64,000 nucleotides of DNA from Escherichia coli. Lineage in GTDB: Bacteria; Pseudomonadota; Gammaproteobacteria; Enterobacterales; Enterobacteriaceae. Below the pieces are notes generated by a model. It had not been told where the DNA came from. It searched no databases and worked only from the letters and a program-made list of their open reading frames with translations. Both the position numbers and the translations under genes were made by a program. Below, in pieces: positions 6,980 to 64,000 of the stretch. The stretch lies in the NCBI RefSeq assembly GCF_030013595.1, contig NZ_CP122771.1; one strand, written 5' to 3'. Position 1 is the first letter of the stretch. Every line of letters begins with the position of its first letter.

Positions 6980-7968
6980 AGCGAAGCCTGTGGCTGCTGA
7001 TGTTATTCCTTCTCGCCGGTCATGTCCCTGCAGCGTCTGCGGATTCTGCCTGTGAGGGGCGTTTTGTAAACCCGATCACGGATATCTGCTGGAGCTGTAT
7101 TTTCCCGCTCTCGCTGGGCAGTATCAAAGTCAGTCAGGGTAAGGTCCCCGACACGGCGAACCCGTCGATGCCCATTCAGATTTGTCCGGCACCGCCGCCG
7201 CTGTTCAGGCGTATCGGGCTGGCCATTGGTTACTGGGAGCCGATGGCGCTGACGGACGTCACCCGGTCACCGGGATGCATGGTGAACCTGGGCTTCAGCC
7301 TGCCGGCTTTTGGTAAAACGGCACAGGGAACGGCGAAAAAAGATGAGAAGCAGGTGAACGGGGCGTTCTATCACGTTCACTGGTACAAATACCCGCTGAC
7401 GTACTGGCTTAACATCATCACATCGCTGGGCTGTCTGGAAGGTGGTGACCTGGATATCGCTTATCTTTCTGAAATTGACCCCACCTGGACGGACAGCAGC
7501 CTGACCACCATTCTCAATCCGGAAGCTGTCATCTTTGCCAATCCGATAGCACAGGGAGCCTGCGCAGCAGATGCGATTGCCAGCGCCTTTAATATGCCTC
7601 TCGATGTTCTGTTCTGGTGTGCCGGTTCGCAGGGAAGTATGTACCCGTTCAATGGCTGGGTGAGTAATGAGTCCAGTCCGTTGCAGTCCTCCCTGCTGGT
7701 CAGTGAACGCATGGCGTTCAAGCTGCACCGTCAGGGCATGATTATGGAAACCATCGGGAAAAATAACGCCGTCTGTAATGAATATCCGTCCCCAATCCTG
7801 CCCAAAGAACGCTGGCGTTACCAGATGGTGAATATGTATCCGGACAGCGGGCAGTGCCACCCGTTCGGGCGCAGCGTGACCCGCTGGGAAACCGGGAAAA
7901 ATCCGCCCAACACAAAGAAAAACTTCGGCTACCTGATGTGGCGTAAACGTAACTGTGTTTTCCTGTAA
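6976..7968 (+). CDS. traU: TraU, pilus assembly/DNA transfer protein
   Basis: 330 aa with signal peptide; synteny. Confidence 0.9.
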   Translation: MKRSLWLLMLFLLAGHVPAASADSACEGRFVNPITDICWSCIFPLSLGSIKVSQGKVPDTANPSMPIQICPAPPPLFRRIGLAIGYWEPMALTDVTRSPGCMVNLGFSLPAFGKTAQGTAKKDEKQVNGAFYHVHWYKYPLTYWLNIITSLGCLEGGDLDIAYLSEIDPTWTDSSLTTILNPEAVIFANPIAQGACAADAIASAFNMPLDVLFWCAGSQGSMYPFNGWVSNESSPLQSSLLVSERMAFKLHRQGMIMETIGKNNAVCNEYPSPILPKERWRYQMVNMYPDSGQCHPFGRSVTRWETGKNPPNTKKNFGYLMWRKRNCVFL

Positions 7969-39553: not shown

Positions 39554-39978
39554 GTATGGCTGATAATCGTAAGTGCTCTTTTTATATTTATCCGGAACGA
39601 AATGCAGCTGATCGGGTGGCTGACAGGTTTCTTGAAAAATTGCCTCAGAAAGAACGTGGTCGGGCAATGCGGGCCATGATGTTGTGTGGTGCTGCATTGA
39701 TGAAGCAGGATGAACGATTGCCGTTCCTGATAGCTGAATTCCTGACAGACAGCACGTCTATGCAGGATATTCAACGAATTATCAGTAGTACGCTACCACA
39801 ACAGGAAAATGGTGAAGTCGTTCGTTTGCTGGAGGCATTTCTGCAGTCTGCTGGTAATAATGCAAAAGCGATCCTGCCTGCGGTTGATTCTGCTACGCAA
39901 GAAATATCTGCTCCAGTCGATCAGAATCTCCTGGAAACAAGAAACAACATTAAGAACTTGTTTCCGGATGATGAATAA
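39550..39978 (+). CDS. stbB: StbB/ParR partition adaptor
   Basis: 142 aa overlapping stbA stop; similar organisation to R1 ParR. Confidence 0.8.
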   Translation: MSMADNRKCSFYIYPERNAADRVADRFLEKLPQKERGRAMRAMMLCGAALMKQDERLPFLIAEFLTDSTSMQDIQRIISSTLPQQENGEVVRLLEAFLQSAGNNAKAILPAVDSATQEISAPVDQNLLETRNNIKNLFPDDE

Positions 39979-40014
39979 GAACTGAACTCTGTTAAAGGAC
40001 GCTGTTGCGTCCTT

Positions 40015-40378
40015 TTTTCTTTTCCGACAAAGGATGTCGCCGGGCTCCTCTTTTTACTGCGCCGGCTGACGCGGCGCGGCAGGAACGCTGCCTGTGGTCA
40101 GTATCCCGCGTCCGGCCGGGCACGGGACGGGCGCTTTTACCGCTCCCGGCTGGCGTCGGTGGCAGTGTACGCCAGCCCGTCGCCCTTTTCTGATGAACGC
40201 CCTTCAAGCCGCTTTCGCGGCATATCCTCGCCGTCAAACAGACGACGGCTGCGGTATTCCACGGTCGGCCTGACCCGTTATCGGACGCGGTGAACAGCCC
40301 ACAGGCCGCGGGGAACGGGCGCCACAGGGGCGCCCTCCCGGTGCTCTCTGCTGAAGCAGAAGTGAGAGGAGAATTCCC
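40015..40378 (+). repeat. Leading-region direct repeat family B, copy 1 (about 360 bp, includes RBS of downstream gene)
   Basis: Near-identical to 41338-41687; begins after stbB terminator hairpin; ends at ATG of 40379 ORF. Confidence 0.85.
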
Positions 40379-41305
40379 ATGCCAAACTGGTGCTCAAATC
40401 GTATGCATTTTTCTGGTGAACCGGCACAGATTGCTGAGATTAAACGACTGGCCAGCGGTGCAGTCACACCGTTTTATCGCCGCGCCACAAATGAAGGTAT
40501 TCAGCTGTTTCTGGCCGGAAGTGCCGGACTTCTGCAGACCACTGAAGATGTGCAGTTTGAACCGTGCCCCGGAGTGACGGCTGCCGGACGTGGTGTTGTA
40601 TCGCCGGAGAATATCGCGTTCACCTGCTGGCTGACACACCTGCAGAACGGTGTGCTACTGGATGAACAAAACTGCCTGATGCTGCATGAACTCTGGCTGC
40701 AGAGTGGTACTGGCCAGCGTCGCTGGGAAGGATTACCGGATGAGGTCAGGGAAACCATCACCGTGCATTTCACCGCCAAAAGAGGTGACTGGTGTGGCTT
40801 CTGGAGTAACGAGGATGTATCGGTGTGGTGGAACCGTCTGTGTGACAATGTACTGCCGGAAAAAACCATGCCGTTTGACCTGCTGACGGTTCTGCCCACC
40901 CGCCTGGATGTTGAAGTGAATGGCTTTAACGGTGGTGTTCTGAATGGTGTTCCTTCTGCGTATCACTGGTATACGGAACAGTATGGCGTGAAGTGGCCTG
41001 TGGGGTATGAGGTGAATATCAGCCGTCAGGGAGAAAACTTCATTCAGGTGGATTTCGACACGCCGTGGTGTCAGCCGGAAAGCAACGTTGTTGCAGAATT
41101 AAGCCGCCGTTTCGGCTGCACGCTGGAGCACTGGTACGCCGAACAGGGCTGCAATTTCTGTGGCTGGCAGTTGTATGAGCGCGGAGAGCTCGTTGATGTG
41201 CTGTGGGGGGAACTGGAATGGTCTTCCCCGACAGATGACGATGAGCTGCCGGAAGTCACCGGACCTGCGTGGATAGTCGACAAGGTGGCGCATTATGGCG
41301 GATGA
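40379..41305 (+). CDS. Conserved leading-region hypothetical protein
   Basis: 308-aa ORF immediately downstream of repeat B1. Confidence 0.6.
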   Translation: MPNWCSNRMHFSGEPAQIAEIKRLASGAVTPFYRRATNEGIQLFLAGSAGLLQTTEDVQFEPCPGVTAAGRGVVSPENIAFTCWLTHLQNGVLLDEQNCLMLHELWLQSGTGQRRWEGLPDEVRETITVHFTAKRGDWCGFWSNEDVSVWWNRLCDNVLPEKTMPFDLLTVLPTRLDVEVNGFNGGVLNGVPSAYHWYTEQYGVKWPVGYEVNISRQGENFIQVDFDTPWCQPESNVVAELSRRFGCTLEHWYAEQGCNFCGWQLYERGELVDVLWGELEWSSPTDDDELPEVTGPAWIVDKVAHYGG

Positions 41306-41337
41306 AGTATGACGGAGACGGGCGGGCAACCGCCCGT

Positions 41338-41687
41338 TTCTTTTCCGGTAAAGGATGTCGCCGTGCTCCTCTTTTTACTGCGCCGGCTGACGCGGCGCGG
41401 CATAAACGCTGCCTGTGGTCAGTGTCCCGCGTCCGGCGGGCACGGGACGGACGCTTTTACCGCTCCCGGCTGGCGTCAGTGACAGTGTACGCCAGCCCGT
41501 CGCCCTTTCTGATGAACGCCCTTCAAGCCGCTTTCGCGGCATAGCCTTGCCGTCAAACAGACGACGGCTGCGGTATTCCACGGTCGGCCTGACCCGTTAC
41601 CGGACGCGGTGAACAGCCCACAGGCCGCGGGGAACGGGCACCACAGGGGTGCCCTCCCGGTGCCCTCTGTAAGAGAAGGAGGCTTTT
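41338..41687 (+). repeat. Leading-region direct repeat family B, copy 2
   Basis: Near-identical to 40015-40378; ends at ATG of methyltransferase gene. Confidence 0.85.
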
Positions 41688-42371
41688 ATGTCCCGTTTTA
41701 TCCTGGGTGACTGCGTGCGAGTTATGGCCACGTTTCCGGACAATGCTGTCGATTTCATCCTCACCGACCCGCCGTATCTCGTCGGTTTCCGTGACCGTTC
41801 CGGGCGCACCATTGCCGGTGACGTTAACGATGACTGGCTGCAACCTGCCAGTAATGAGATGTACCGCGTACTCAAAAAAGACGCGTTAATGGTGAGCTTC
41901 TATGGCTGGAACCGCGTCGATCGCTTTATGGCCGCCTGGAAAAATGCGGGATTCAGCGTGGTTGGCCACCTGGTGTTTACCAAAACCTACACATCGAAGG
42001 CCGCATATGTGGGCTATCGCCACGAATGCGCCTACATCCTGGCAAAAGGACGTCCGGCGCTGCCTCAGAAGCCATTGCCCGACGTGCTGGGCTGGAAATA
42101 TTCAGGCAACCGCCATCACCCGACGGAAAAGCCTGTTACCAGCCTGCAACCGCTCATTGAGAGCTTCACACATCCGAACGCGATTGTGCTGGACCCGTTT
42201 GCAGGCAGCGGCTCAACATGCGTCGCCGCCCTCCAGTCCGGACGCCGGTATATCGGTATCGAGCTGCTTGAACAGTATCACCGTGCCGGACAGCAACGAC
42301 TGGCCGCCGTGCAACGGGCCATGCAGCAGGGGGCCGCGAATGATAACTGGTTTGAACCGGAGGCGGCGTAA
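41688..42371 (+). CDS. Orphan DNA methyltransferase (beta-class N6A/N4C)
   Basis: 227 aa; DPPY near N-terminus and FAGSGST near C-terminus; no adjacent restriction endonuclease. Confidence 0.85.
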   Translation: MSRFILGDCVRVMATFPDNAVDFILTDPPYLVGFRDRSGRTIAGDVNDDWLQPASNEMYRVLKKDALMVSFYGWNRVDRFMAAWKNAGFSVVGHLVFTKTYTSKAAYVGYRHECAYILAKGRPALPQKPLPDVLGWKYSGNRHHPTEKPVTSLQPLIESFTHPNAIVLDPFAGSGSTCVAALQSGRRYIGIELLEQYHRAGQQRLAAVQRAMQQGAANDNWFEPEAA

Positions 42372-42593
42372 ATGAACTATGCCGGACACGAAAAACTTCG
42401 CGCCGAAGTGGCGGAGGTGGCCAACACCATGTGTGACCTTCGGGCCAGGCTGAACGATATGGAGCATCGCTGTCGCTTTGATTCCGATGTGCTTGTTGAA
42501 CGCCTGACACGCCAGACGCTGTATCGCGCCAATCGCCTGTTCATGGAGGCATATACCGAAATTCTGGAACTGGATTCCTGCTTCAAAGATTGA
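42372..42593 (+). CDS. Hypothetical small protein
   Basis: 73-aa ORF start-overlapping MTase stop. Confidence 0.4.
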   Translation: MNYAGHEKLRAEVAEVANTMCDLRARLNDMEHRCRFDSDVLVERLTRQTLYRANRLFMEAYTEILELDSCFKD

Positions 42594-42603
42594 GGAGAGA
42601 GAG

Positions 42604-43039
42604 TATGTACGGAACATGCGAAACGCTGTGCCGGGAGCTGGCAGCAAAGTATCCGGGAGACACGCCACTGATGCTGGTTATCTGGTCTCCGGAAGATATT
42701 CAGGCACTGGCTGACGGTATGGAAATTTCTCTGACCGATCATGAAATCAGGACCGTCCTGGCGCGCATGGAGGACATCCCGGAAGACCAGCGGACTGAAT
42801 CCGGTATTTCTTCCGCCGCGGTGATGGAGATTATCAGCAACGTGAGCGAAAACCGCCAGGTGACCGTCCCTGCTGAACTGCTGGCGTCCCTGATTCAGAC
42901 CGCTGAACAGGCACTGTGGAAACGTGAGTGGGCCGCCCGTGATAACGGCCTCGCCGTCCCGGAATGCGTTACCCGCCGTCAGGCGGTGGTTAATCAGGCC
43001 CGCACCCTGCTGAAAAACAACACACACGAAAACAACTGA
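42604..43039 (+). CDS. Hypothetical protein, paralog of 44754-45176
   Basis: ATG at 42604 ([12 protein letters not shown]...); shares RQVTVPA-containing region with 44754 ORF. Confidence 0.5.
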
Positions 43040-43089
43040 TGTTATCGCCGCCTGCCCTGCGGGCGGCGATACAGGGAGAACGCTTAATC

Positions 43090-43869
43090 ATGAACGAAAA
43101 CAGCACGCTGAACGCACTGATTTGTCGTCACGCCCGTAACCTGCTGCTGGCGCAGGGCTGGCCGGAGGAGACGGATGTTGATCAGCGAGATCCACAGAAC
43201 TATCCGGGCTGGATCAGCATTTACGTGCGGCTGGATGCGCCCCGGCTGGCGACGTTACTTATCAACCGTCACGGCGGCGTACTGCCGCCGCTCCTGGCCT
43301 CCGCCATTCAGAGACTGACCGGAACCGGGGCGGAACTGGTACTGTCCGGCAGTCAGTGGCAGTCGCTGCCGGTACTTCCGGCAGACGGAACGCAGGTGTC
43401 TTTCCCGTATGCCGGAGAATGGCTGACCGAAGACGAAATCAGGGCTGTTCTTGATGCGGTGCACGATGCGGTACGAAGCATCTGTTACCAGGTGGCAGAA
43501 GATGCGCGGCGTATCCGTGCGGCGCTGACCACCACCGGTCAGACGTTGCTGACCCGCCAGACGCGCCGCTTTCGCCTGGTCGTGAAGGAAAGCGATCACC
43601 CCTGCTGGCTCGATGAAGATGACGAAAACCTGCCCGTGGTGCTCGATGCCATCGTGAACCGGGGAGCACGTTTTTCGTCGGTGGAAATGTATCTGGTCAG
43701 TGAGTGTATTGAGCATATCCTGTCCAGTGGGCTGGCCTGCGATGTGCTGCGTATACCGGATGAACCGCCCCGCCGCTGGTTTGACCGTGGTGTTCTGCGG
43801 GAAGTTGTCCGGGAAGCCCGGGCCGAAATCCGCAGCATGGCGGATGCCCTGACAAAAATCAGGGGCTGA
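43090..43869 (+). CDS. Hypothetical protein
   Basis: 260-aa ORF from ATG 43090. Confidence 0.5.
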
Positions 43870-44281
43870 TGATGGCGGGGAAAATCCCCGCCTTTTTCCT
43901 GCCGGTCCCCGGACAGAGCACAAAGGAAGTCGCCGCCGGCTCCGCTTTACCCGGCCATGCAGGCATGGCCTTGTGGGTTTTCAGTTATGTGGCCACAGTG
44001 TCGTGTGCGGGCTGTGCCGTGCCTCCATCTTAGCCGGGCTGGCGTTGATGCAAGGGTACGCTTCGCCGCTGCGGTCACCCGGTCCCTCCTTCCCGTCTGC
44101 CGTGATTTTCCGGTCGTTCACCCGCTCAGATTTCGCGGTCTCACCCTCCAACTCCCGCCAGCCGTGTGCGTCAGGCTGCGGCTTCCCTTGCGCCCTGTGC
44201 ATCCCCGCCTTATCGCCCGGCTTTTATGGAGGCACGGCACCGCCCGGTGTCGCGGAATATGTGAACAACGGAGGAAATCCC

Positions 44282-44707
44282 ATGCAGTATGCAAAATCTG
44301 TCATTCTGAACGTTGAAGAGTGCGACCGTCTGTCTTTTCTGCCTTACCTGTTTGGCAACGATTTTCTGTATGCCGAGGCATCTGTGTACGCGCTGGCGAA
44401 AAAAATGATGCCGGAATATGAAGGCGGATTCTGGCACTTCATCCGCCTGCCGGACGGTGGCGGTTACATGATGCCGGATGGCGACCGTTTTCATCTGGTC
44501 AACGGTGAAAACTGGTTTGACCGTACGGTCAGCGCCGATGCCGCAGGCATCATTCTGACCTCCCTTGTGATTAACCGCCAGTTGTGGCTGTACCACGACA
44601 GCGGGGATGCGGGACTGACACACCTGTACCGGATGCGCGATGCGCAGTTGTGGAGCCACATCGAATTTCACCCCGAATGTAACGCGATTTACGCGGCACT
44701 GGACTGA
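44282..44707 (+). CDS. ardB: ArdB/KlcA-like antirestriction protein
   Basis: 141 aa starting [33 protein letters not shown]; recognised as ArdB/KlcA family from memory. Confidence 0.75.
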
Positions 44708-44753
44708 TTAACGGACGGGGCGGCAATGCCGTCCCTGTAAAGGCGACGAGAAC

Positions 44754-45176
44754 ATGTACTGTACTGTTAAAGAAATTATCCGCGAAGTGCTGGATACAGA
44801 CGTGCCGGACAGTGAATGCGTTTTTGCCGTGGTGCTGACCCGTGGGGATGTGCGTCACATAGCCCAGGACTGGAACCTGTCAGACGATGAGCTGGAAACC
44901 GTCATGCAGCGGCTGGACGATGCCTTTGAGCATGGTGCGGATGTCAGCGTTGTTCACGACGTTGTTCGTGAACTGATGGAAGAAAAGCGCGCCAGCCGTC
45001 AGGTGACAGTCCCGGCGGTGATGCTGGAAAAAGTGATGGCGCTGGCAGGCAGTGAAATGAAGCGCCTGTATGCCGTCGGGAGTGAGAACGGGGGCGACGG
45101 TGACGCATTCGTCAGGGAAGAACGCGAAGCAATGGACGTTGTGTTACAGGCGCTGGACGGGGAGCACATGTCATGA
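44754..45176 (+). CDS. Hypothetical protein, paralog of 42604-43039
   Basis: 140-aa ORF; shared RQVTVPA motif and acidic profile. Confidence 0.5.
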   Translation: MYCTVKEIIREVLDTDVPDSECVFAVVLTRGDVRHIAQDWNLSDDELETVMQRLDDAFEHGADVSVVHDVVRELMEEKRASRQVTVPAVMLEKVMALAGSEMKRLYAVGSENGGDGDAFVREEREAMDVVLQALDGEHMS

Positions 45177-45364
45177 ATATCAGCACAGAAACCCGCGAAA
45201 TTCTGCGTAATTACAGGGCCGTGATTAATGCACGACGTCGTGAGATGGGGCAGAAACCGCTCACCACCGCGCAGGTTGTTGATGAAATCTGCGATTTTGT
45301 GGCGAATCAGCAGGCGGTTTTCCTCGGTGGTCACTACATCCTGCAGGGTAACAGAAACAGATGA
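45173..45364 (+). CDS. Hypothetical small protein
   Basis: 63-aa ORF overlapping stop of upstream gene. Confidence 0.35.
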   Translation: MNISTETREILRNYRAVINARRREMGQKPLTTAQVVDEICDFVANQQAVFLGGHYILQGNRNR

Positions 45365-45592
45365 TACAGAGGCAGGCGGTGGAGGCCGCCTGTCAGCCCG
45401 CGCGAAAACCCCTGGCAGGCTGGCGCCTGCCGGAAGGGAAGCGGGCCACGCTGGCGCGTCGCCCGTTACCCTTCCCGTTTGTGATGTGTCCGGAATGTTT
45501 TTTTCTGATGGTATGACCCTGTTCCTGTTGTTGTTGTTGTTCTTTTCTCTGCTGCCCTGATTCTGACTACTGCAGTGTTGTCCTGTCTGCCT

Positions 45593-46165
45593 GCGCACCT
45601 TCGGCTCCCGGCTGCCTGGCGGCATCCGGTCGTCAGGCCCGACTCCGACAGGCAGCTGCTGGCGCACCCGCCAGTCTCCGCCGAACCCGCTGGCGCGGTT
45701 TCGGGCTGTCGCTACGGTCCGATGCGTGAAAACCCCGGGCTTGCAGCGACCGTTCCGGTCGCGCCACCCTTGTCGCGCCGTGGCCTGCGCTCCCGGCATC
45801 CCGGCAAAAGGCCGCCGGGATGTAAGGCGCAACGCCGTTTCGCGCACGCGCTCTCCGTCGTTGCGGCGGGTCCCTGCTCATTGCCTGCCGGGTGCCACAC
45901 ACCCGTATGAGTCCCTGTCGCCGGGGGCTGATACAGCCACAACCTGCCGCACTGACTGTCCAGGGTAAATGAACAGCCCACAAAATTTTTTACCCAAAAC
46001 CCGGTAAAAAATTTTGCGTTCTGCCCGGGACAGGTGCGTCAGGCCGTGGCAGTGATGCCCCTTGCGGCGAAGGTTCTCAAACGGGTGAAGTTCATACCAC
46101 AGGGAATACAGCAGCAGGTTCCCGCGAAACGTCAAAACCGCGGCTCCCGAAACTCAACGGGTGAT
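45593..46165 (+). repeat. Frpo-like leading-region repeat, copy 1 (hairpin 45979-46018)
   Basis: About 570 bp GC-rich unit also at 49012-49465 and 59340-59925; 14-bp perfect stem caaaattttttacc/ggtaaaaaattttg. Confidence 0.8.
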
Positions 46166-46395
46166 GTTCTTTAAAAATCAGGATTTATTTCAGGCTCCGG
46201 CAATATGCATTTATTTGTTCTGTCAGTCATCCGGCTGGCAGGTAATGAGAACGCAGGAACAGAAGGAGGAAAACACCGGAGAACGTCAGACGCAGATATG
46301 AAAAAAGCAGGTCAGGGACCTGCTTAATCCACACCGCAGAGACTGCACGAACAGTCTTTACGGTTTCATTAATTAACGTCATAAGAGGCTAAATT

Positions 46396-46626
46396 ATGAC
46401 AGTAAGTATTGTTTCACCTTCCGCAGCGGCTGTAAAGCCCCGCCGTCATCCCCGTTTCAGACGCGAAGACATCCCCGCGCCGGAAATTGACCCCGTGCTG
46501 AAAGCCTTCGGGCGACACATTGCCCGGAGTTTTCACCGGGGGCGTGGTGTACACATCCCCGCCATGAAAAACACGACCTTCGGGCAGGTGCTCCGCACAC
46601 TCGAACTGAAACGCGCTTTTAACTGA
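46396..46626 (+). CDS. Hypothetical small protein
   Basis: 76-aa ORF downstream of Frpo-like copy 1. Confidence 0.4.
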   Translation: MTVSIVSPSAAAVKPRRHPRFRREDIPAPEIDPVLKAFGRHIARSFHRGRGVHIPAMKNTTFGQVLRTLELKRAFN

Positions 46627-46677
46627 TGAGGTGAGCCGCCCCGCGAGGGGCGGCAACAGACGGAAGGAGAACATTTT

Positions 46678-48039
46678 ATGACATTAGCAGCAATCACCAT
46701 GACCGCCCCGGAAGCCGCCAGCCCTGTGCAGATGTACCGCGCGACCTACTCACCGGATGACAACAAACTGCGCCTGTATGCCGTGTCACGTCTTGACCCG
46801 GAGACGTATAAAAAAGTGCATGATGCCGGTTTCCGCTGGGCACCAAAACAGGAGCTGTTTGTCGCGCTAGCCTGGACACCGGGCCGGGAAGACGTGCTCC
46901 TCTCACTTGCCGGAGAGATTGAGGATGAAGACAGCACGCTCGCTGAACGTCAGGAAGCACGGGCGGAGCGGTTTACCGGATACAGCGGAAAGCGGGCCAG
47001 TGAATCCGCACAGGCACTTGATGAAGTGGAAAGACTGGCCGCGATGATCCCGCCCGGTCAGCCCATTCTTGTGGGGCATCACAGCGAACGCCGCACCCGT
47101 CGTGATGCGCAGCGTATTGAAAACGGCATGAAACGAGCAGTGATGCTCTTTGAACGTGCGGAATACTGGGAAGAGCGGGCGCGGTCGGCACGGCTTCACG
47201 CGAAGTATAAAGAACGTCCGGACGTTCGCTGGCGTCGCATCAAAAAAATCGAAGCTGATTTGCGCAAGGCTGAAAAGACCATCGCACAGTCGCAGAAATA
47301 TCTGACGATGTGGCGGGCTGAATCGCTGGATCTGAATATGGCAAAATTCATCAGCAGTTATGACCGTATCAGTGCCTGTTTCCCGCTGGATACGTATCCG
47401 CGCCCGGCAGAAAAAAGCCAGTATGAAGGGAGCCGGTCGTTATGGTCGGCCCTGGATGATGACATCATCACCACGGAGCAGGCCCGCGAAATTGCGATCC
47501 GCTGTCATGAACGGCAGATTCAGCATCAACAACGCTGGGTTAACCACTATCAGAACCGCCTGATCTATGAGCGTACCATGCTGGACGAAAGCGGCGGCGT
47601 GGTTACCCGGACACAGGATTTTGAGCCGGGCGGACAGGTTTTCAGCCGGGGCGAGTGGCTGACCATCATCCGTGTGAACAAAAGCAACGGGGCGGTGAGT
47701 TCAGTCACAACGCCGAATTACAGTTTCCTCGGGTACAGCGGCACGATGAAAGTGACGCCCGATCGCATCACGGACTACAAAGCACCATCGGCAGAAGAGG
47801 CTGCCGTCGCCAGCCAGGCCGCGAAGCGTCCGCCGGTAGTCAACTATCCGGGGGAAGGTTTCCGGGAAATGACAAAGGCACAGTGGGCCGCCCTGCCCCG
47901 GGACTGTAAGGCCGTGCGCAGTGTGGCAGAAGCAGAAGACCACGGGGCATACCGCTACCGCCGCACAATGGACAATAATTTCCGTCTGGTGAATGTGTAT
48001 ATCACCGACATGAAAATTACGGAAATCCCACAGAAATAA
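46678..48039 (+). CDS. Conserved leading-region hypothetical protein
   Basis: 453-aa ORF with GGAGAA RBS. Confidence 0.6.
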   Translation: MTLAAITMTAPEAASPVQMYRATYSPDDNKLRLYAVSRLDPETYKKVHDAGFRWAPKQELFVALAWTPGREDVLLSLAGEIEDEDSTLAERQEARAERFTGYSGKRASESAQALDEVERLAAMIPPGQPILVGHHSERRTRRDAQRIENGMKRAVMLFERAEYWEERARSARLHAKYKERPDVRWRRIKKIEADLRKAEKTIAQSQKYLTMWRAESLDLNMAKFISSYDRISACFPLDTYPRPAEKSQYEGSRSLWSALDDDIITTEQAREIAIRCHERQIQHQQRWVNHYQNRLIYERTMLDESGGVVTRTQDFEPGGQVFSRGEWLTIIRVNKSNGAVSSVTTPNYSFLGYSGTMKVTPDRITDYKAPSAEEAAVASQAAKRPPVVNYPGEGFREMTKAQWAALPRDCKAVRSVAEAEDHGAYRYRRTMDNNFRLVNVYITDMKITEIPQK

Positions 48040-48085
48040 GGTATATCCCCCCGGGAAATCCCCGGGGGATGACGGAGATAATGAC

Positions 48086-48649
48086 ATGCACAGTCAGTTA
48101 AGAGAACGTATCCGGCTGATGCGCGCAAGGCTGGATAACGCCGCGCCGGTTGCTGAAATCCGGGCTGAATCTCAGCTTTTTGTGACTCCTGCCCCGGTCT
48201 GTGATCGCCTGGTGACGCTGGCGGAGATCAGCAACCGTGATCACATTCTGGAACCCTCTGCCGGCACCGGGGCCATACTGCGGGCGATTCGGGATACCGC
48301 GCCGGGGGCCATGTGTGATGCGGTGGAAATCAACAGCGGGCTGGTCCGGTATCTGCGGGAAAATTTTAACGGTGTCAGGGTTCAGTGTGGCGACTTCATG
48401 GAATGGCAGCCGGTGCAGTATTACAGCCGGGTTATCATGAATCCGCCGTTCAGCCACGGGCAGGATATCCGGCATATCCTGCGGGCCTTTTCCCTGTTGC
48501 GTCCGGGTGGCGTGCTGGTCGCCGTCTGTCTCAACGGACCACGCCAGCAGGAGAAGCTGTTGCCGTTTTCTGACGTCCGCGAGGAGCTGCCGCGCGGCAC
48601 GTTTGCTTATACCCGTGTTCCGACGATGATTATTCGTCTGCGGGCCTGA
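48086..48649 (+). CDS. Small orphan N6-adenine DNA methyltransferase-like protein
   Basis: 187 aa; SAM-binding EPSAGTG followed by NPPF catalytic motif. Confidence 0.75.
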   Translation: MHSQLRERIRLMRARLDNAAPVAEIRAESQLFVTPAPVCDRLVTLAEISNRDHILEPSAGTGAILRAIRDTAPGAMCDAVEINSGLVRYLRENFNGVRVQCGDFMEWQPVQYYSRVIMNPPFSHGQDIRHILRAFSLLRPGGVLVAVCLNGPRQQEKLLPFSDVREELPRGTFAYTRVPTMIIRLRA

Positions 48650-48830
48650 AGACGCCGGGCAGGCGGGAGGATAAATGCCTGTCTGTCCGCGCCGGGAAAA
48701 GACCGCGCGCCGGTGGCGCTGAAAGGGGCCGCGCTGACGCGCCGCCCCTTTCATTACGCGGACGTTCTGACGGGGGCTTCTGTCTTTTCAGACCTGTCAT
48801 TTGCCTGTTACTGATGATGTTGTTGTTCCT

Positions 48831-48866
48831 GCTACTGCTACTGCTACTGCTACTGCTACTGCTACT
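48831..48866. repeat. Hexanucleotide microsatellite (gctact)x6
   Basis: Direct reading; related (gtt)x5 run at 45523-45542 in the equivalent position before Frpo-like copy 1. Confidence 0.85.
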
Positions 48867-49011
48867 GTTCTTCTTTTTTCTGATGCTCTCATTACTGTCT
48901 GTTTTGTTGTTCTCCTGCTTATGCCTTTTCCGGGCGTCCCCCTGGCGGGGCGGGCTGTCGTGAACGGAGCCAGCGAAGCTGTCTCCGCCCTGGCGGGCTT
49001 CCATCCCTGAC

Positions 49012-49465
49012 GCCAAACCCCCTGGCTTGCAGCGACCGTTCCGGTCGCGCCGCCTCTGTCGCGCCGTGACCTGCGCTCCCGGCATCCCGGCAAAAGGCCG
49101 CCGGGATGTGAGGGGCAACGCCGTTTCGCGCACGCGCTCTTCGTCGTTGCGGCGGGTGCCTGCCCGTTGTTGTATCCGGTGCCCTGCACCCGTTTAAGCC
49201 CCTGTCGCCGGGGGCAAAGACAGCCACAACCGTCTCCGCCAGTCCAGGGGTGAAATGCACATCCCACAAAAGTTTTTGCCCAAAAGCCGGCAAAAACTTT
49301 TGTGGTCTGCCCCCGGACAGTCGTTTCCGGCCGTGGCAGTGATGCCCCTTGCGGCGAAGGTTCTCAAACGGGTGATGGTTAATACCGGAGGGAACAAACG
49401 GCAGGTCCCCGCAAAACGTCAAAACCGCGGCTCCCGAAACTCAACGGGTGATGGGGGCTGAAAAC
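49012..49465 (+). repeat. Frpo-like leading-region repeat, copy 2 (hairpin 49264-49305), immediately upstream of ssb
   Basis: Perfect 17-bp stem ccacaaaagtttttgcc/ggcaaaaacttttgtgg; unit ends at ssb RBS. Confidence 0.8.
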
Positions 49466-49486
49466 ATCAACAGAAGGAGACACATC

Positions 49487-50017
49487 ATGGCAGTTCGTGG
49501 AATTAACAAGGTCATTCTTGTCGGTCGCCTGGGAAAAGATCCGGAAGTCCGTTACATCCCCAACGGGGGCGCAGTGGCAAACCTGCAGGTGGCCACGTCA
49601 GAAAGCTGGCGTGACAAACAGACGGGGGAGATGCGGGAGCAGACGGAATGGCATCGCGTGGTGTTGTTCGGCAAGCTCGCGGAAGTGGCTGGTGAATATT
49701 TGCGTAAGGGTGCGCAGGTCTACATCGAGGGGCAACTCCGTACCCGTAGCTGGGACGACAACAACGGCGTCACCCGTTACATCACTGAAATCCTTGTTAA
49801 AAACACGGGCACCATGCAGATGCTGGGACGTGCCGCAGGTACTCAGACTCAGCCGGAAGAGGCGCAACAGTTCAGCGGTCAGCCTCAGCCGGAATCACAG
49901 CCGGAACCGAAAAAAGGTGGCGCGAAAACGAAAGGCCGTGGACGTAAGGCCGCGCAGCCGGAGCCTCAGCAGCCGTCTGAACCCGCGTATGACTTCGATG
50001 ACGACATTCCGTTCTAA
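49487..50017 (+). CDS. ssb: Plasmid single-stranded DNA-binding protein
   Basis: [25 protein letters not shown]-fold N-terminus; Gly/Gln/Pro-rich tail ending DDDIPF. Confidence 0.95.
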
Positions 50018-50066
50018 CGAAAGACAGTGACAACCGCCCCGTCCAGTGCGGGGCATCACCGGAGAT

Positions 50067-53566: not shown

Positions 53567-55138
53567 TTACTGAGAGGTCAGATCAACTTTCCAGGGCAAC
53601 AGATCGCGTACCCGGTTTGCCGGCCAATCCTGGATATGCTCAATGACGTAACGCAGCCATTTTTCTGGTTCCACATTGTTCAGACGGCATGTGCCGATCA
53701 GCGAGTACAACACCGCCGCATGTTCGCCACCGCTGTCGGAACCCGCGAAGAGCCAGTTTTTCCGGCCTACGGCCACTCCCCGTAAGGCGTTCTCTGCGAT
53801 GTTGTTGTCGATTTCCACCCAGCCATTACTGCAGTACACGTTCAGGGCCTCCCACTGTTTCAGCAGGTATGCGAACGCTTTTGCCGTATCCGAGTGACGC
53901 GACAGTGTTTTCATCTGTTCCTGTATCCAGTCATACAGTGACTGCATCAGTGGAGCCGCTCTGGCTTTTCTTGCTGCCAGACGCTGTTCTGCTGAACATC
54001 CCCGGACTTCTGCCTCGATGACATACAGTTCACCGATACGCTGCAGGGCTTCCGTGGTGATGTCGGTTGGCACTCTTGCATGCACATCGTGGATTTTTCT
54101 CCGGGCATGGGCCATACACGCGGCTTCCGTTATTCTGCCGGATTCGTATAACGCCCGGTAACCACCGTAAGCATCTGCCTGAAGCACACCGCTGTAACCG
54201 GCCAGGTGATTCTGTGGATGGATACCTTTCCGGTCCGGGCTGTACGCGAACCAGACCGCCGGGGGCATCTGTGAACCGGCGTTACGGTCATCACGGACAT
54301 AGACCCACAGCCGGGCAGTTCTTGTTTTACCACTGCCCGGCTCCTGGACCGGAACGGGGATATCATCCGCATGGACTTTACCGGGCATCAGCACATACTG
54401 GCGCAGCACGTCATACAGCGGCTCCAGCAGTTCAGCAACGGCACCGGTCCAGCGCCCCAGCGTGGCGCGGCTCAGTTCCACGCCCTGACGAAGGTATATT
54501 TCTGACTGGCGGTATAACGGCAGATGGTCTGCATACTTCCCGGTGACGATATGAGCCAGAAGCCCCGCTCCGGCATAACTGCGTGCAATGGGTTTTGAAG
54601 GTACTGGTGCCTGCACGATATGGTCGCACCGGCAACAGGCCAGTTTCGGACGTTGTGTTTCGATAACCTTAAAAGCGCTGCTGATAAGCTCCAGTTGCTC
54701 TGACACATCACACCCCAGAGGACTGAGGTCACCACCACAGGCCGGGCAGCATTCCTCTTCCGGCCGGATGACCCGGGTTTCACGGGGAAGTGAGGCCGGT
54801 AACGGCTTACGGGCTGAAGACTGGCGCAGGGCGGATGGCAGTACCGGGTCATATTGCTCATCCAGCGTTTCCGCCATTTCTTCCTGAAGTGCGCTGATTC
54901 GCTCCTGGGCTTCCTGTATCTGCCGTTCGGTTTTAGCGCGAAGTTTTTCTGAGCTTTTACCGAACTGCATGCGCTGCAGTTTCGCAACCAGCGCCTTCAG
55001 CCGGTTGATTTCGGAAGCATAAGCCGCCACCCGCTGTGAGAGCAGGCGGTTGTATTTCGCCATCTGGCGGATGGTGTCCTGTTGCGTCTGCAACAGTGCC
55101 CGCAGGCGGGCATTCTCATGAGCAAGTGAGGTGTCCAT
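53567..55138 (-). CDS. IS66-family transposase (OrfC)
   Basis: 523 aa with N-terminal coiled coil, CxxC...CxxC zinc motif and DDE-type core. Confidence 0.9.
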
Positions 55139-56994: not shown

Positions 56995-59339
56995 GGGTCG
57001 GGTAGCAGCGGCACATTGCTGCGCCGCCGCCCCCTAAGAACGGAGCGTGCGAGTTTTCCCGCACTCCGCTCAAGCCTTTATAAGTGCTTTCGGTGAGCAC
57101 CGGCTTCCCTGCTGTGTAACTGTCGGTGGCAGTTCGGATGTAACAACTCGAGATTGGTCAGTTCGTCACTGCCGCCCATAACTTTCCTGATCCGGTGATG
57201 TATATTCCATCCGGTCTGGTTGGTTATGAGTTGTCCGCACTGCGGACAGTGTTTCCCCTGCCTCTTCCAGAGTTGAACTACTGTCTTCATCTTCTTTGAT
57301 TTGCCTTTCCAGATTAGATCCAGACGACGTTCAAAGTAGATTTCCATTCCGGGGGTGTATGGTGTTGCTTCGCCTTTGATTTTTATATGGCGCTTTATCG
57401 GTGTTTCCATTGCCCGGAAGAGTGTCAGAATTTTCCCTTCCGGGGTTATGGCTTTAAAGATCCAGCGCCTGCCTTCAAAGGAGAAGTATCGTCCGGCGAT
57501 CCACCGCAATCCTTTCCGGGGATGCCGTCTTACACACCATCGCCATATAGCTCGCCAGATTTGGGTGTCGACATAATTAAATGTTTCTTTCGCCACGACG
57601 TGTCGGTGATAGGTAGCCCATCCCCGGATCACCGGGTTTAGCTGGCCTATCAGTTTCCATGCCGGGAGCGTCGGATTGCGTTTAATTATTTCTCTGACTT
57701 TACAGAGGAAGTTCTTCAGGTTTTTCTTCGACGGTTTAATCAGCATTTTACCGTTGTACTTCCTGACGTTCTGCCCTAAAAAGTCGAAGCCTTTATCTAT
57801 ATGTGTGATCGCTGTTTTTTCTTCCGACAGTTCCAGCCCTCGTTCGCGCATGAAAGCTGCAATCAGTGGTCTGACCTCATTTTCCAGCAATTCACGGGAG
57901 CTGCCTGAACAGATGAAATCATCAGCATATCTCACATAATTCACCTGGTGCTTTGCACTGTGATAACCACTTTTCCTGAACGTTTGCATCAGTTCCTTCT
58001 CCAGTCCGTCCAGAGCCATGTTGGCGAGAACAGGGGATATGATGCCTCCCTGCGGTGTCCCGCTGTTCGTATGGTTAAACACGCCTCTTTCCATGTAACC
58101 TGCTTTCAACCATTTTTTAAGCAGTCTCCTGTCCATCGGAATATGGGAAAGCAGCCAGTCATGGCTGATGTTATCGAAACACCCTTTAATATCGCCCTCC
58201 AGTATCCATTTGGGCGATACTTTCTGGCTCATCCGCAGAAAAATGGACTCAATGGCGTCATGCGTGCTGCGCATTGGTCTGAAACCATAGCTGTTATGGT
58301 CAGCAGTGGTCTCGGATACGGGTTCCAGAGCCAGCAGCCACAGTGCCTGCATGGCCCGGTCCCTCATTGTGGGTATGCCCAGCGGTCGCGTTTTGCCGTT
58401 TGATTTTGGGATATGTATTCGCCGTAGTGGCTGTGGCCTGTAACCACACAGATTCAGGCTGCATATTCCTTCCCATTTCTCCTTCGGTGTGTGCCATATT
58501 TTTCCGTCAATACCGGGTGTCCTTTTACCGGTATTTTCAGTTACACGCCTGACAGCCACGGCTTTGCCGGAGAATGAGCGGGTGAGGATGCGCTGTAGTT
58601 CTCTGACCTGCCGCCATTGTTGCTGTCGGGTTGCCTTTGCAATCCGTAACTGTAGCTTTCGCACCCGGGCATGGCATGCTTTCCAGTTTATGGTGTGCCA
58701 GCCTGTCGGGTGGGGTATCGTGGACACACTGATGTGTGTATTCATCTCGCTGATATCCTTTTGACTGCTTTACAGCTTTTCATGCAATTAAAGACCAGAC
58801 GGAAGTCTGCCCGCTTTCGCGTCGGGGAACCTGCCCCGTATCCCGGTTATTACGGCCGGGCATTCGCTTTTTCCGTCCTCCTATGCCCGCACCGCTAACA
58901 GTGTTCCTTGCGGTTCACCTGCCTGTGAGGCAGCGATACGGGTTTACCAGGTTCCGCTTAACATACAGAGGGTCAGGGCGGGTTCTGTCTCTTCACCGGG
59001 GGTCTCTGCGCCCATGTGCTCCCTGTGCGCGAGGTAGCAACCGGACCCCGTACCTTTTGGTTCAGGCCTGTCAGCATCTTTGGCCTGTTGCCGATAACGG
59101 TGTTTATCAACAGTTCACATGTGTTAACCCTTCTGACCAGCCTTGCTCTCCTGCCGCATGATGCTTGCAGCAAGGTAAAGCCCCTCACGGGGCTTTACCC
59201 GGGCTGACGCCCGGCTCTCGTTGTCCCGGGAGCTTCAGACCCCGCCGTTGCCGGCAACGCCTGTCCCGGTAGGCTACAGCTAATGGGATAGCTGGTTTTA
59301 TCAATGTAAAACAATACGTTAAGCGACTTCCTGTCGCAC
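56995..59339 (-). mobile_element. Group II intron, boundaries +/-10 bp
   Basis: 5' end GTGCGACAGG on minus strand; domain V-like hairpin GAGCGGAGTGCGGGAAAACTCGCACGCTCCGTTC near 3' end (+ coords about 57030-57063); encodes RT/maturase/HNH ORF. Confidence 0.8.
57078..58745 (-). CDS. Group II intron-encoded reverse transcriptase/maturase with HNH endonuclease
   Basis: 555 aa; RT motifs incl. YADD (VRYADDFIC); C-terminal CPQCG...H..H HNH. Confidence 0.9.
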   Translation of the reverse strand: MNTHISVSTIPHPTGWHTINWKACHARVRKLQLRIAKATRQQQWRQVRELQRILTRSFSGKAVAVRRVTENTGKRTPGIDGKIWHTPKEKWEGICSLNLCGYRPQPLRRIHIPKSNGKTRPLGIPTMRDRAMQALWLLALEPVSETTADHNSYGFRPMRSTHDAIESIFLRMSQKVSPKWILEGDIKGCFDNISHDWLLSHIPMDRRLLKKWLKAGYMERGVFNHTNSGTPQGGIISPVLANMALDGLEKELMQTFRKSGYHSAKHQVNYVRYADDFICSGSSRELLENEVRPLIAAFMRERGLELSEEKTAITHIDKGFDFLGQNVRKYNGKMLIKPSKKNLKNFLCKVREIIKRNPTLPAWKLIGQLNPVIRGWATYHRHVVAKETFNYVDTQIWRAIWRWCVRRHPRKGLRWIAGRYFSFEGRRWIFKAITPEGKILTLFRAMETPIKRHIKIKGEATPYTPGMEIYFERRLDLIWKGKSKKMKTVVQLWKRQGKHCPQCGQLITNQTGWNIHHRIRKVMGGSDELTNLELLHPNCHRQLHSREAGAHRKHL

Positions 59340-61470: not shown

Positions 61471-61983
61471 TTAATTGTTCTGCACGCTGTTAATTTCCGG
61501 AAGTGATTTCTTCGTGGCCGGAAGCCGGATACCTTTACTGCTTTTTATCCCGGTATAAATCCGGTAAACCTCTGATGCGTAGGCAAGACGTCTCTGGTTC
61601 TGGCGTTCGGATTTCCTGAATCCTGCATTGTATGCACCAACGGCCTCCCAGGTGACGCCCCATTTTTTAAATGCTATTGCCAGATAATAAGCACCGGTAT
61701 AAATGTTCATGCAGGGATCTGTTGTCAGATGTTCCGGCTTAATTCCATAGCGGGCCAGTTCGTTAAAATGCTGGGAATCTACCTGCATCAGTCCGCTGCC
61801 ATATCCCGTTACCGGATTAATACCGATGGCATTAACCCGGTAACGGGATTCTTTCCATGATATTGCTCTCAGTAAATCAGGATCTATTTTGTAATCCCGG
61901 CCTGCAAGATCAAAGCAATCAGTGGCATGGCAGATCTCATTTATAAACATCAGGCAGATGGCTAACATCCATTTTTTCATTTT
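61471..61983 (-). CDS. Gene X / orf169 lytic transglycosylase
   Basis: 170 aa from [12 protein letters not shown]; signal peptide; adjacent to oriT as in F. Confidence 0.85.
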
Positions 61984-61989
61984 TCCACC

Positions 61990-62390
61990 TCTGGTGACTT
62001 TATCCGTAAATAATTTAACCCACTCCACAAAAAGGCTCAACAGGTTGGTGGTTCTCACCACCAAAAGCACCACACACTACGCAAAAACAAGTTTTTGCTG
62101 ATTTGCCTTTTAAATCATGTAATTAACAAATGCTATTTATATTTAATAATTCTGAATTATTAAATAGAGAGTCGTTGGCGATCCTGTTACGACCCTATAG
62201 CGACCCTTATTAGGATCAGTACTGACAATTTTCATGAAAAACATTGATATATATTAGGGGCGCCACTAGCGCCGGATCGCATTTTTTTATAGGATGATCC
62301 TAGAGGCGCTGCTAGGAGTGTCTTTCTTACTTGTAAACACTATATGCATATTTATAGTGAAAAGTTCATTGCTTAATTATGAAAGGTTTT
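61990..62390. promoter_or_regulatory. oriT (origin of transfer) with nic region about 62060-62080 on the minus strand
   Basis: Reverse complement of 62030-62082 reads GTAGTGTGTGGTGCTTTTGGTGGTGAGAACCACCAACCTGTTGAGCCTTTTTGTGGAGTGGG, near-identical to the F/R100 nic region as remembered. Confidence 0.8.
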
Positions 62391-62971: not shown

Positions 62972-63643
62972 ATGTATCCGACGGATCGTAGACAACTTAA
63001 TACTGAACGTCAAATATATTTGGATAAACAGTCTTTTGTAGATGTTTTTTCAATCCCTGCTTGCGTTCGAAATACTAATGGAGATTTTATCGGCTACAAT
63101 GAAAAATTCTCTAAAGAATTTATAGGTAGTCTTGATATCAAAGAGTGGTTTTACTCCCTTCCTGTACAAGTAGCTACATCGTTTTTAAGAGAAGAACTGG
63201 ATGCTATGTCTTTGCCTTCGTCCATGAATAAAATACAGAGCGTGGCTATAGGTGATAAACTCTGGCTGGTACAATTTATACCATTAATATATGGGGAGGT
63301 GGTTAATGTTTTATGGCTTTTTTTCTGCAAAAATTCTAATGTGATAGTGGATTATTGTAGAGGATTACGTTCAAATATAACAAATGACAGAATGCTTGAA
63401 TTTAAAAACAAATCAACGGAAATCCAATGGAAAGTTTTTATTCTTTATTCATTTGGTTTTTGTCATGAATCGATAGCATCTCTTTTGTCTATTACTAATG
63501 GTTCTTCCCGGAATGCAATTTCAGAAGTGTATAAGTTTTTCGGTATACATTCAAAACATGATTTGTTAATGATTTTTCATACAAGTAGGATGCATAGTTT
63601 ATTTTTTGATGAATTGTTTTTTATTTTAAAATGTGCTGAATAG
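62972..63643 (+). CDS. traJ: TraJ, transfer operon activator
   Basis: 223-aa AT-rich ORF between traM and traY. Confidence 0.8.
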
Positions 63644-63779
63644 TTGATGTTTTGTTTTTGTTAAAAACAAGGTGACATTATGTCACCTTGTTTTGTTAAT
63701 GTAATTTACTCTATTTTTGTTTCTATTTTTATGGATTCGTATAATTATATTTAATTATCTAAGTGGCTGAGGAGGAGAC

Positions 63780-64000
63780 TTGAGCAGAAATATAATAAGG
63801 CCTGCTCCGGGCAATAAAGTTTTACTGGTATTGGACGATGCTACTAATCACAAGCTCTTAGGTGCCCGGGAGCGCAGCGGGAGAACAAAAACTAATGAGG
63901 TGCTAGTCAGGTTACGTGATCATCTGAGCCGTTTTCCTGACTTTTATAATCTGGATGCAATAAAGGAGGGAACAGGGGAAACTGATTCGATAATTAAAGA
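63780..64000 (+). CDS. traY: TraY (5' part; truncated by window end)
   Basis: TTG start after GAGGAGGAG RBS; ribbon-helix-helix-like N-terminus; runs off window. Confidence 0.7.
   Translation, partial: MSRNIIRPAPGNKVLLVLDDATNHKLLGARERSGRTKTNEVLVRLRDHLSRFPDFYNLDAIKEGTGETDSIIK

Follow-up and report, generated by a model that had tools for sequence, protein, structure and literature searches.

Two short acidic proteins encoded near an ArdB-like antirestriction gene share the heptapeptide RQVTVPA, raising the questions of whether they belong to one family and of what they could do for the replicon that carries them. The stretch of DNA analysed here (the window), 64,000 nucleotides of contig NZ_CP122771.1 from Escherichia coli, is nearly the whole of a conjugative, F-type IncF plasmid. 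A preliminary description had opened the first of the two ORFs, A, at position 42604, but that frame contains nine stops; the correct start is the ATG at 42605, which lies 7 nt downstream of a GAGGAG ribosome-binding site and gives an N-terminus, MYGT, that is kept across the family. ORF A therefore occupies 42605..43039 on the + strand (144 aa), whereas ORF B had been delimited exactly, at 44754-45176 on the + strand (140 aa). The heptapeptide is identical in both products, at residues 84-90 of A and 82-88 of B, and the acidic N-terminal region attributed to both is also real, with a net charge of −11 in A and −12 in B over the first ~82 residues.

The similarity between A and B extends well beyond the heptapeptide. 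They are 27% identical over 116 aa in BLASTP (E=7e-10), and a comparison of the A-clade and B-clade profiles with hhalign aligned them over their full length, 137 columns, with 99.65% probability and E=3.8e-25. A is a full-length, high-scoring member of Pfam PF07128 (DUF1380; 183.7 bits, residues 1-136 on model positions 1-137). B scored 22.2 bits (E=1.6e-4), failing, with the model version used here, the curated whole-protein gathering cut-off of 26 bits that A passes; under this version it is a sub-threshold sister clade and no formal member, and a precomputed PF07128.18 match is present on close variants of B. The match of B covers only model positions 1-102, corresponding to its first ~100 residues, and its C-terminal hairpin is unlike that of clade A, although the clades share the RxVTVPA motif and their predicted architecture. 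Both proteins also match PHROG 9024 (A, 3e-73; B, 6e-6), and RefSeq names both 'DUF1380 family protein'. Among 18 family sequences, R84, V86, P89, A90 and L93 are conserved in 15-17, and a neighbour-joining tree resolved two clades in agreement with gene position. Full-length profile homology and common architecture therefore unite the A and B clades in one superfamily, and the two proteins are ancient paralogues of a single small family, DUF1380, restricted to plasmids of Enterobacterales.

Other families gave no competing assignment. Neither protein matches Pfam Antirestrict PF03230 (KlcA/ArdB), and neither belongs to the ArdA (PF07275) or Ocr families by sequence or fold. NCBIfam contained no real match for A or B, that of B being only sub-threshold (a fabG_rel reductase at 18 bits where the cut-off is 339; we read this as noise), PADLOC returned nothing with either protein, and a sweep of weak Pfam matches over the 18 family members produced no consistent second family. 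Longer database 'fusions', to TrbI or of KlcA to DUF1380, have one member each and are artefacts of read-through or assembly.

A and B are orthologues of the F-plasmid proteins named, in the source annotation, YubF/YcgB (YcgB being the R100-type name) and YubJ/YcjA (the latter also YcgC). A shares 93% identity with the F protein and 90% with that of pESBL, B shares 97.9% with each, and the order of the surrounding genes is the same in F. The same module is found in the IncI1 plasmid pESBL, and DUF1380 genes occur in F, pO157 and pESBL. Against F, dN/dS was 0.20 for A and 0.08 for B, showing that both are real genes under purifying selection. By tblastn, intact, nearly identical ORFs were found in at least 5000 of 72,556 PLSDB plasmids, and the exact sequences of A and B occur on 674 and 697 contigs, respectively; a tblastn search of 50,697 phage records with A yielded no match. 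By size, the families of A and B rank 7th and 14th among the leading-region families of Samuel et al. 2024, which lists both as uncharacterised, and neither matches the known anti-CRISPR or anti-restriction sets in that study, save for 31 structure matches to ArdB within the B family, which probably reflect KlcA-B read-through products like one that we observed.

The positions of the two clades are fixed: clade A follows the methylase and YubE genes, and clade B lies directly downstream of KlcA/ArdB. The order methylase-YubE-A ... KlcA-B recurs in the divergent loci L003/4, L007, L008, L010 and L011, so that both paralogues are kept in divergent plasmids; L005/6 contain A only, with no B, and in L005 KlcA is present without B. 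Between distant plasmids, the DUF1380 genes diverge fastest within their operons, with protein identities of 26% for A and 32% for B, as compared with 70% for the methylase, 53% for YubE and 45% for KlcA.

In the window, A is the third gene of an operon ordered ssDNA-methylase–YubE–A–orf276. The first gene (41688..42371, + strand) encodes an orphan N6/N4 DNA methylase (Pfam N6_N4_Mtase, 134 bits), homologous to M.EcoGIX and F YubD and 96% and 89% identical to the methylases of F and pESBL; M.EcoGIX is an ssDNA-specific m6A methylase (PMC7736820). A 73-aa ORF of the YubE family (42372..42593, +; PHROG 4830), whose homologues in loci L003-L006 carry PF27407:YubE, has its start directly against the methylase stop codon. 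The last gene, orf276, encodes a 276-aa protein of the YchA/YubG family (43039..43869, +; PHROG 8919, 468 bits) with no Pfam match; it begins on the final base of the stop codon of A and is missing from the divergent loci L003, L005 and L010. An intrinsic terminator on the + strand (43874..43901; GGCGGGGAAAATCCCCGCC then TTTTT) closes the operon. The second operon, KlcA/ArdB–B–orf63, opens with a KlcA/ArdB-type antirestriction gene (F YubI; 44282..44707, +; PF03230, 92 bits), which also matches PHROG 10132, anti-restriction protein. B starts 46 nt after the end of this gene, and its stop codon overlaps, as ATGA, the start of orf63 (45173..45364, +), whose basic 63-aa product is found with its exact sequence on 533 contigs and is 95% conserved in F and pESBL. 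The preliminary description had the two paralogues flanking the ArdB-like gene, which is apt for B, but A belongs to another operon, being separated from KlcA by orf276, the terminator and a promoter region. The small ORFs beside A and B, YubE and orf63, are not homologous (E=4.4), indicating that the duplicated unit was the DUF1380 gene alone.

Both operons are preceded by a long stem-loop region on the − strand resembling the ssDNA promoters of pESBL. Upstream of the methylase, a class-3 type region (41407..41629, −) lies on the transferred, template strand within a conserved element that spans 41337-41669 in full; its identity is 97.4% to the sequence that precedes M.EcoGIX in pESBL and 95.5% to F 53812-54146, and the − strand of 41306-41687, folded as ssDNA, reached −105.3 kcal/mol (z = −4.9 versus shuffles). 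Upstream of klcA, also on the transferred strand, a class-2 type region (44008..44246, −) is 96.6% and 94% identical, respectively, to the pESBL sequences that precede klcA and ardA and 97.9% identical to F, and the − strand of 43870-44281 folded to −101.1 kcal/mol (z = −4.3 versus shuffles). This region agrees with the class-2 description in PMC12672017. The same source reports that start sites of the class-2 and class-3 ssDNA promoters of pESBL were mapped by 5' RACE and that, in RNA-seq of F and pESBL transconjugants, the klcA and M.EcoGIX operons were induced, a result taken here at the level of the operon. We found no sigma-70 promoter match on the + strand between 39900 and 46700.

The positions of traM (62294) and of the SLT gene (− strand, 61471-62073) place oriT at ~62.1-62.3 kb, next to traM. 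The leading genes are all on the + strand, and the T (transferred) strand is the template for both operons; A and B lie in the part of the plasmid that is transferred first. The median gene ranks from oriT are 15 for B, 16 for KlcA, 19 for A and 21 for the methylase (Samuel et al., Supplementary file 3). Expression of the antirestriction gene of pO157 rises 33x and, in parallel, that of the DUF1380 gene beside it 22.7x, and ciprofloxacin induces the whole region. The 96.6-97.4% identity of the hairpin regions to the pESBL promoters suggests that A and B are probably made within minutes of entry, and they probably count among the few genes that are switched on in the first minutes of the plasmid's stay in a recipient.

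AF2 models of A and B (pLDDT 84.7 and 80.5) have an identical order of helices and predict a common architecture, with an acidic four-helix N-domain, the RxVTVPA linker and a C-terminal two-helix hairpin; the relative orientation of the domains is uncertain, as pTM was only 0.55-0.56. The two clades differ mainly in the hairpin, which carries LAGxEMxR...GGGD in B and AEQALWxxEWxARD..PVPE in clade A. Searches of PDB sequences with the single proteins and the family profile found nothing meaningful, and Foldseek against the PDB identified no significant relative of solved structure (best E 0.86); the best BFVD match (E=4.5e-3), to a 92-aa protein of an Erwinia phage that is itself uncharacterised, was uninformative. 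Both proteins are acidic, with a pI of 4.67 for A and 4.41 for B and whole-protein net charges of −9 and −17; throughout clade B the net charge is −13 to −17. Over the N-terminal ~82 residues, every one of the 18 family members examined has a net charge between −8 and −14, with only five acidic columns conserved in at least 70% of these sequences.

What, then, might these proteins do? That their resemblance arose by chance, or that they are non-functional hitch-hiking ORFs, is hardly credible: the full-length homology refutes it, as do the low dN/dS values, the thousands of plasmids with intact ORFs, the hundreds of exact copies and the retention of both paralogues in divergent plasmids. The preliminary description proposed an anti-defence role, which is part of our best guess, and mentioned DNA mimicry, in which the acidic surface, like those of ArdA and Ocr, would pass for B-DNA and tie up type I restriction enzymes or other defence enzymes that bind DNA. 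Like ArdA and phage T7 Ocr, the DUF1380 proteins are acidic, with the charge concentrated in the N-domain, would be made first on entry, to judge from their promoters, and are linked to restriction evasion, being encoded in operons devoted to it. Their charge density is modest, however, at −0.06 (A) and −0.12 (B) per residue, as compared with about −0.17 for ArdA and −0.25 for Ocr. The five conserved acidic columns do not seem to amount to a conserved charge array, and the models predict a fold different from those of ArdA and Ocr, a compact helical domain plus a hairpin and no elongated charged rod. No PDB chain matched significantly, Pfam showed no ArdA match, and in IncI1 plasmids the module coexists with a bona fide ardA. 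Mimicry is not supported, and we consider it quite improbable.

The strict and ancient pairing of A with methylase-YubE, and of B with KlcA, across plasmids whose proteins are 26-45% identical, would fit accessory subunits, A modulating the ssDNA methylase (its targeting or timing, or limiting toxic over-methylation) and B modulating KlcA (its stability or the range of systems inhibited). Tight gene packing and the co-regulation of the antirestriction and DUF1380 genes of pO157 agree with this, but a single fold working with two unrelated partners would be surprising, and A and B diverge faster than those supposed partners. Cloned KlcA/ArdB homologues are, moreover, reported to be active alone (Serfiotis-Mitsa et al. 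2010; Goryanin et al. 2018), which, with the occurrence of KlcA without B in L005, indicates that B is not an obligate KlcA cofactor. Likewise, M.EcoGIX made alone methylated ssDNA in vitro (PMC7736820), and overall we regard a subunit role as unlikely. A third possibility, which we find rather unlikely, is that A and B are establishment factors with no part in defence, acting in ssDNA-to-dsDNA conversion, in SOS, RecA or SSB handling, or in feedback on the ssDNA-promoter operons. Leading-region proteins with such roles exist (PsiB, SSB and YfjB), expression may be limited to the ssDNA phase, and the ciprofloxacin induction in pO157 points the same way; against this, neither A nor B has a fold or motif for DNA binding, direct contact with DNA is unlikely for acidic proteins, and the closest neighbours of both are restriction-evasion genes, not ssb or psiB.

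The explanation that we prefer, with middling confidence in it as a whole, is that A and B are ancient paralogues, made early, that act as stoichiometric binders of host proteins. Hairpin promoters would form on the incoming single strand and drive both operons, as their near-identity to those of measured plasmids suggests; the recipient would begin to make A and B within minutes of DNA entry and would stop when the plasmid has become double-stranded. While the plasmid establishes itself, each protein might then bind a host protein and neutralise or redirect it, as PsiB acts on RecA; the likeliest target is a factor of defence or DNA processing with a link to restriction evasion. Stoichiometric action is proposed because neither protein has an enzymatic or DNA-binding signature, and a non-enzymatic binder is consistent with the lack of further Pfam, NCBIfam or PADLOC matches, the conserved acidic N-domain and the fast divergence. 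The predicted C-terminal hairpin is a likely dimerisation element, and the paralogues may have specialised through their different hairpins. Binding and an anti-defence role are our best guess, drawn from the association with neighbouring genes and from the absence of other signatures.

Two comparisons help to place this proposal. PsiB, the leading-region SOS inhibitor, offers an analogue in the way of working, being small, entry-induced and non-catalytic and binding host RecA, although it has no homology to DUF1380 and belongs to a separate operon (Frpo class 1). KlcA/ArdB (PF03230) and DUF1380 are both small acidic leading-region proteins found in IncF and IncI1 plasmids, and klcA and B are probably co-transcribed from the same ssDNA promoter; however, KlcA has no sequence or predicted-fold similarity to DUF1380, and its activity against type I restriction has been demonstrated in vivo. 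A bolder version, tentative and less likely than not, is that the DUF1380 paralogues form a new class of effectors, of anti-defence or establishment, each specialised by its hairpin against a different host factor. The methylase-linked copy might block type IV (methylation-dependent) restriction otherwise provoked by a promiscuous ssDNA adenine methylase, and the KlcA-linked copy might block a back-up system that senses the inhibition of type I restriction.

The DUF1380 family, the pairing of A and B and their location are already in public annotation, so that finding them here adds little in itself. Our analysis adds the full-length homology between the clades, their ancient duplication, fixed positions and hairpin divergence, their status as the fastest-diverging genes of their operons, and the improbability of mimicry. 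A and B are among the commonest uncharacterised genes of enterobacterial resistance and virulence plasmids, and identifying the binding partners of DUF1380 would fill a gap in how plasmids establish themselves and spread antibiotic resistance. The searchable literature, including searches by the gene names yubF, yubJ and ycjA, yielded no experiments on DUF1380; the 'ycjA' of pS88 is a different, ParB-like gene.

ORF A (42605-43039, + strand, 144 aa), the equivalent of F YubF/YcgB, and ORF B (44754-45176, + strand, 140 aa), the equivalent of F YubJ/YcjA/YcgC, are both real. The preliminary description had located B exactly and placed the start of A at 42604, one base from its ATG at 42605; a start at 42604 was ruled out by nine stops in that frame. 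A GAGGAG ribosome-binding site lies 7 nt 5' of the 42605 start, which yields the N-terminus MYGT, conserved family-wide. The RefSeq start of the F copy of A (6966-7520 in our F sequence) lies around 40 codons too far 5', running into YubE; from the conserved MYGT start, the true F product has 144 aa.

The similarity between A and B exceeds chance. BLASTP aligned them over 116 residues at 27% identity (E=7e-10), including the exact RQVTVPA heptapeptide. Pfam PF07128 (DUF1380) recognized A with 183.7 bits, clearing its 26-bit cut-off, and B with 22.2 bits (E=1.6e-4), slightly below it; PHROG 9024 matched A at 3e-73 and B at 6e-6, so that two independent profile libraries back their kinship. Among 1.84 billion representative proteins, a profile of the pair reached only 276 at E<=1e-3, many of them fragments, indicating that the family is narrow. 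Its full-length members form two groups, clade A and clade B, whose profiles, built from nine aligned sequences each, matched end to end over 137 columns (99.65% probability, E=3.8e-25). Because BLASTP, Pfam, PHROG and this comparison all extend past the heptapeptide, the similarity claimed in the preliminary description stands and is not confined to that block.

The acidic N-terminal region described for both proteins was also borne out, with a net charge up to the RxVTVPA motif of -11 in A and -12 in B, and of between -8 and -14 in every one of the 18 sequences compared. In A numbering, E40, D45 and E47 form a small conserved cluster within this domain, and the linker holds an invariant Arg. 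The C-terminal part is roughly neutral in clade A; of the nine clade B members, eight carry -2 to -6 there and one carries +1. AlphaFold2, run on the 18-sequence alignment, predicted a common plan (pLDDT 84.7 for A and 80.5 for B; pTM 0.55-0.56): four helices within residues ~5-82, RxVTVPA in a non-helical linker, and a hairpin whose two long helices (about 90-113 and 120-142) run antiparallel. It is mainly in this hairpin that the clades diverge (AEQALWxxEWxARD..PVPE in A, LAGxEMxR....GGGD in B). Neither Foldseek against PDB (best E 0.86) nor BFVD (best match an uncharacterised phage protein, E=4.5e-3) returned an informative relative, and we found no further Pfam, NCBIfam, PADLOC or PDB-sequence signal.

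The window spans traW to traJ, an almost complete IncF conjugative plasmid. A pig ETEC plasmid is 99.3% identical over the queried 8.1 kb (40000-48100), and its gene map also agrees with the remainder; at least 5000 PLSDB plasmids from Escherichia, Klebsiella, Salmonella and Shigella match the 8.1-kb region. ParM/StbB and DUF1281 precede a DNA methylase (41688-42371), followed by YubE (73 aa), A, a 276-aa ORF directly 3' of A (orf276, 43039-43869), a clean intrinsic terminator (43874-43901), KlcA/ArdB (44282-44707), B and, directly 3' of it, a 63-aa ORF (orf63). Then come DUF3560, a SAM-methyltransferase, ssb, a ParB-like gene, PsiA, DUF932, an SLT gene on the - strand and TraM (62294). This gene order puts oriT at about 62.1-62.3 kb and makes the stretch the leading region; the transferred strand is the - strand, the template for all these leading-region genes. 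This arrangement is shared by the classical F plasmid (A 93% and B 97.9% identical), and the module also occurs in the IncI1 plasmid pESBL (90.3% and 97.9%), whose transfer system is unrelated to that of IncF.

YubE starts immediately after the methylase stop, and the stops of A and B overlap the starts of orf276 and orf63, respectively. We infer two operons, methylase-YubE-A-orf276 and KlcA-B-orf63, bracketed by DUF1281 (40379-41305) and DUF3560 (46678-48039). Both bracketing genes belong to prevalent leading-region families of unknown function, the former acidic (pI 4.57) with a ferredoxin-like C-domain. The orf276 product, of the YchA/YubG family (PHROG 8919), has no Pfam domain, is translationally coupled to A and is annotated as 258 aa in F and pESBL; since three divergent loci (L003, L005 and L010) lack it, orf276 is an optional fourth member of the methylase operon.

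The + strand has no sigma-70 consensus from 39900 to 46700. Long stem-loops lie on the - strand upstream of klcA (44008-44246; -101 kcal/mol, z = -4.3) and of the methylase (41407-41629; -105 kcal/mol, z = -4.9), in regions 96.6% and 97.4% identical, respectively, to their pESBL counterparts and 96-98% identical to F. Wen et al. 2025 (PMC12672017) describe transconjugant-specific RNA-seq in which six pESBL leading-region operons, including those of KlcA and M.EcoGIX, showed strong induction within 15 min of mating, the latter two being enriched in F transconjugants too; 5' RACE put transcription starts at upstream hairpin ssDNA promoters, which are of class 2 for klcA and ardA and of class 3 for M.EcoGIX. 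In line with their description, the klcA-upstream region (43900-44281) is also 94% identical to the pESBL ardA-upstream region, indicating that one promoter cassette serves two antirestriction genes on different backbones. From these near-identical, experimentally characterised promoters, both operons would be induced upon entry into the recipient, and A and B probably expressed there early and transiently. M.EcoGIX, the methylase partner, is an ssDNA-specific m6A methylase and a proposed protector of incoming DNA (PMC7736820). Independent co-regulation is seen in resident pO157 of EDL933, with homologues of 41688-50030, where ciprofloxacin raised an antirestriction gene 33-fold, the adjacent DUF1380 gene 22.7-fold, an adjacent hypothetical gene 125-fold, ssb 7.4-fold and the methylase 5-fold (PMC11125564). 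This suggests that DNA damage exposing single strands also fires ssDNA promoters in vegetative cells.

The A/B pairing is of long standing and tied to gene position. Across divergent loci from metagenomes and plasmids, a clade A gene follows methylase-YubE (L003/4, L005/6, L010) or precedes KlcA (L007), and a clade B gene follows KlcA (L003/4, L007, L008, L010, L011); L005 has KlcA and lacks B. In a neighbour-joining tree, 19 full-length sequences fell into two clades concordant with gene position. At short evolutionary distance, purifying selection acts on A and B (dN/dS against F: A 0.20, B 0.08, KlcA 0.14, methylase 0.11); at long distance, they diverge faster than the other genes of their respective operons (identity to L003: methylase 70%, YubE 53%, KlcA 45%, B 32%, A 26%). 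Such divergence fits proteins tracking a variable partner and, equally, a loosely constrained helical scaffold.

We found no catalytic or DNA-binding signature in the sequences or model anatomy. Our preferred reading is that A and B bind a host protein stoichiometrically during plasmid establishment, most likely in connection with restriction evasion, a mode that would resemble PsiB in its logic; the predicted hairpin could dimerise. Taken whole, identity and stoichiometric binding together, this reading has about an even chance of being correct, nearly all the doubt falling on mechanism, not identity. An establishment role unconnected with defence is unlikely. That the proteins are accessory subunits of the methylase or KlcA is quite improbable, since KlcA occurs without B, methylase and KlcA are each active alone, and a single fold would need two unrelated partners. 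The preliminary description had seen possible DNA mimicry in these acidic proteins; we consider it very unlikely, given that charge density is modest and no more than five acidic columns are conserved, and given the compact predicted fold and the bona fide ArdA also carried by IncI1 plasmids with the module.

RefSeq names both products 'DUF1380 family protein'. Samuel et al. 2024 list them as family 7 (3957 members; YcgB/YubF/PF07128; gene rank 19 from oriT) and family 14 (3145 members; YcjA/YcgC/YubJ/PF07128; rank 15), both 'Uncharacterized' (PMC11541004, Supplementary file 3), without anti-CRISPR set matches; their sole anti-restriction matches are 31 ArdB structure matches in family 14 (PMC11541004), which we read as KlcA-B read-through products. 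Our literature search found no functional study, and what was already known is thus an annotated family of unknown function on the best-studied conjugative plasmid. To this we add the full-length homology between clades, an ancient, position-locked duplication, the hairpin as chief site of divergence, the connection to experimentally mapped ssDNA promoters and results that make DNA mimicry unlikely; interest would rise if A or B proved a new anti-defence effector.

Other elements of the region are repeated. A ~335-bp element occurs twice at 95% identity, 5' of the DUF1281 gene (40016-40350) and of the methylase (41337-41669), and once in F, 5' of the methylase; being 97% identical to the pESBL class-3 ssDNA promoter region, it seems to be a duplicated promoter driving a second gene. 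A second pair (45729-46088 and 49015-49375; 85% mutual identity), matching F at 58174-58531, upstream of ssb (95%), and 63562-63921 (93%), presumably represents Frpo/ssi-type (class 1) ssDNA promoters. Finally, a short GC-rich hairpin without a T-run, GGACGGGGCGGCAATGCCGTCCC (44712-44735), lies between the klcA stop and the B start and could serve in stabilising or processing the mRNA.
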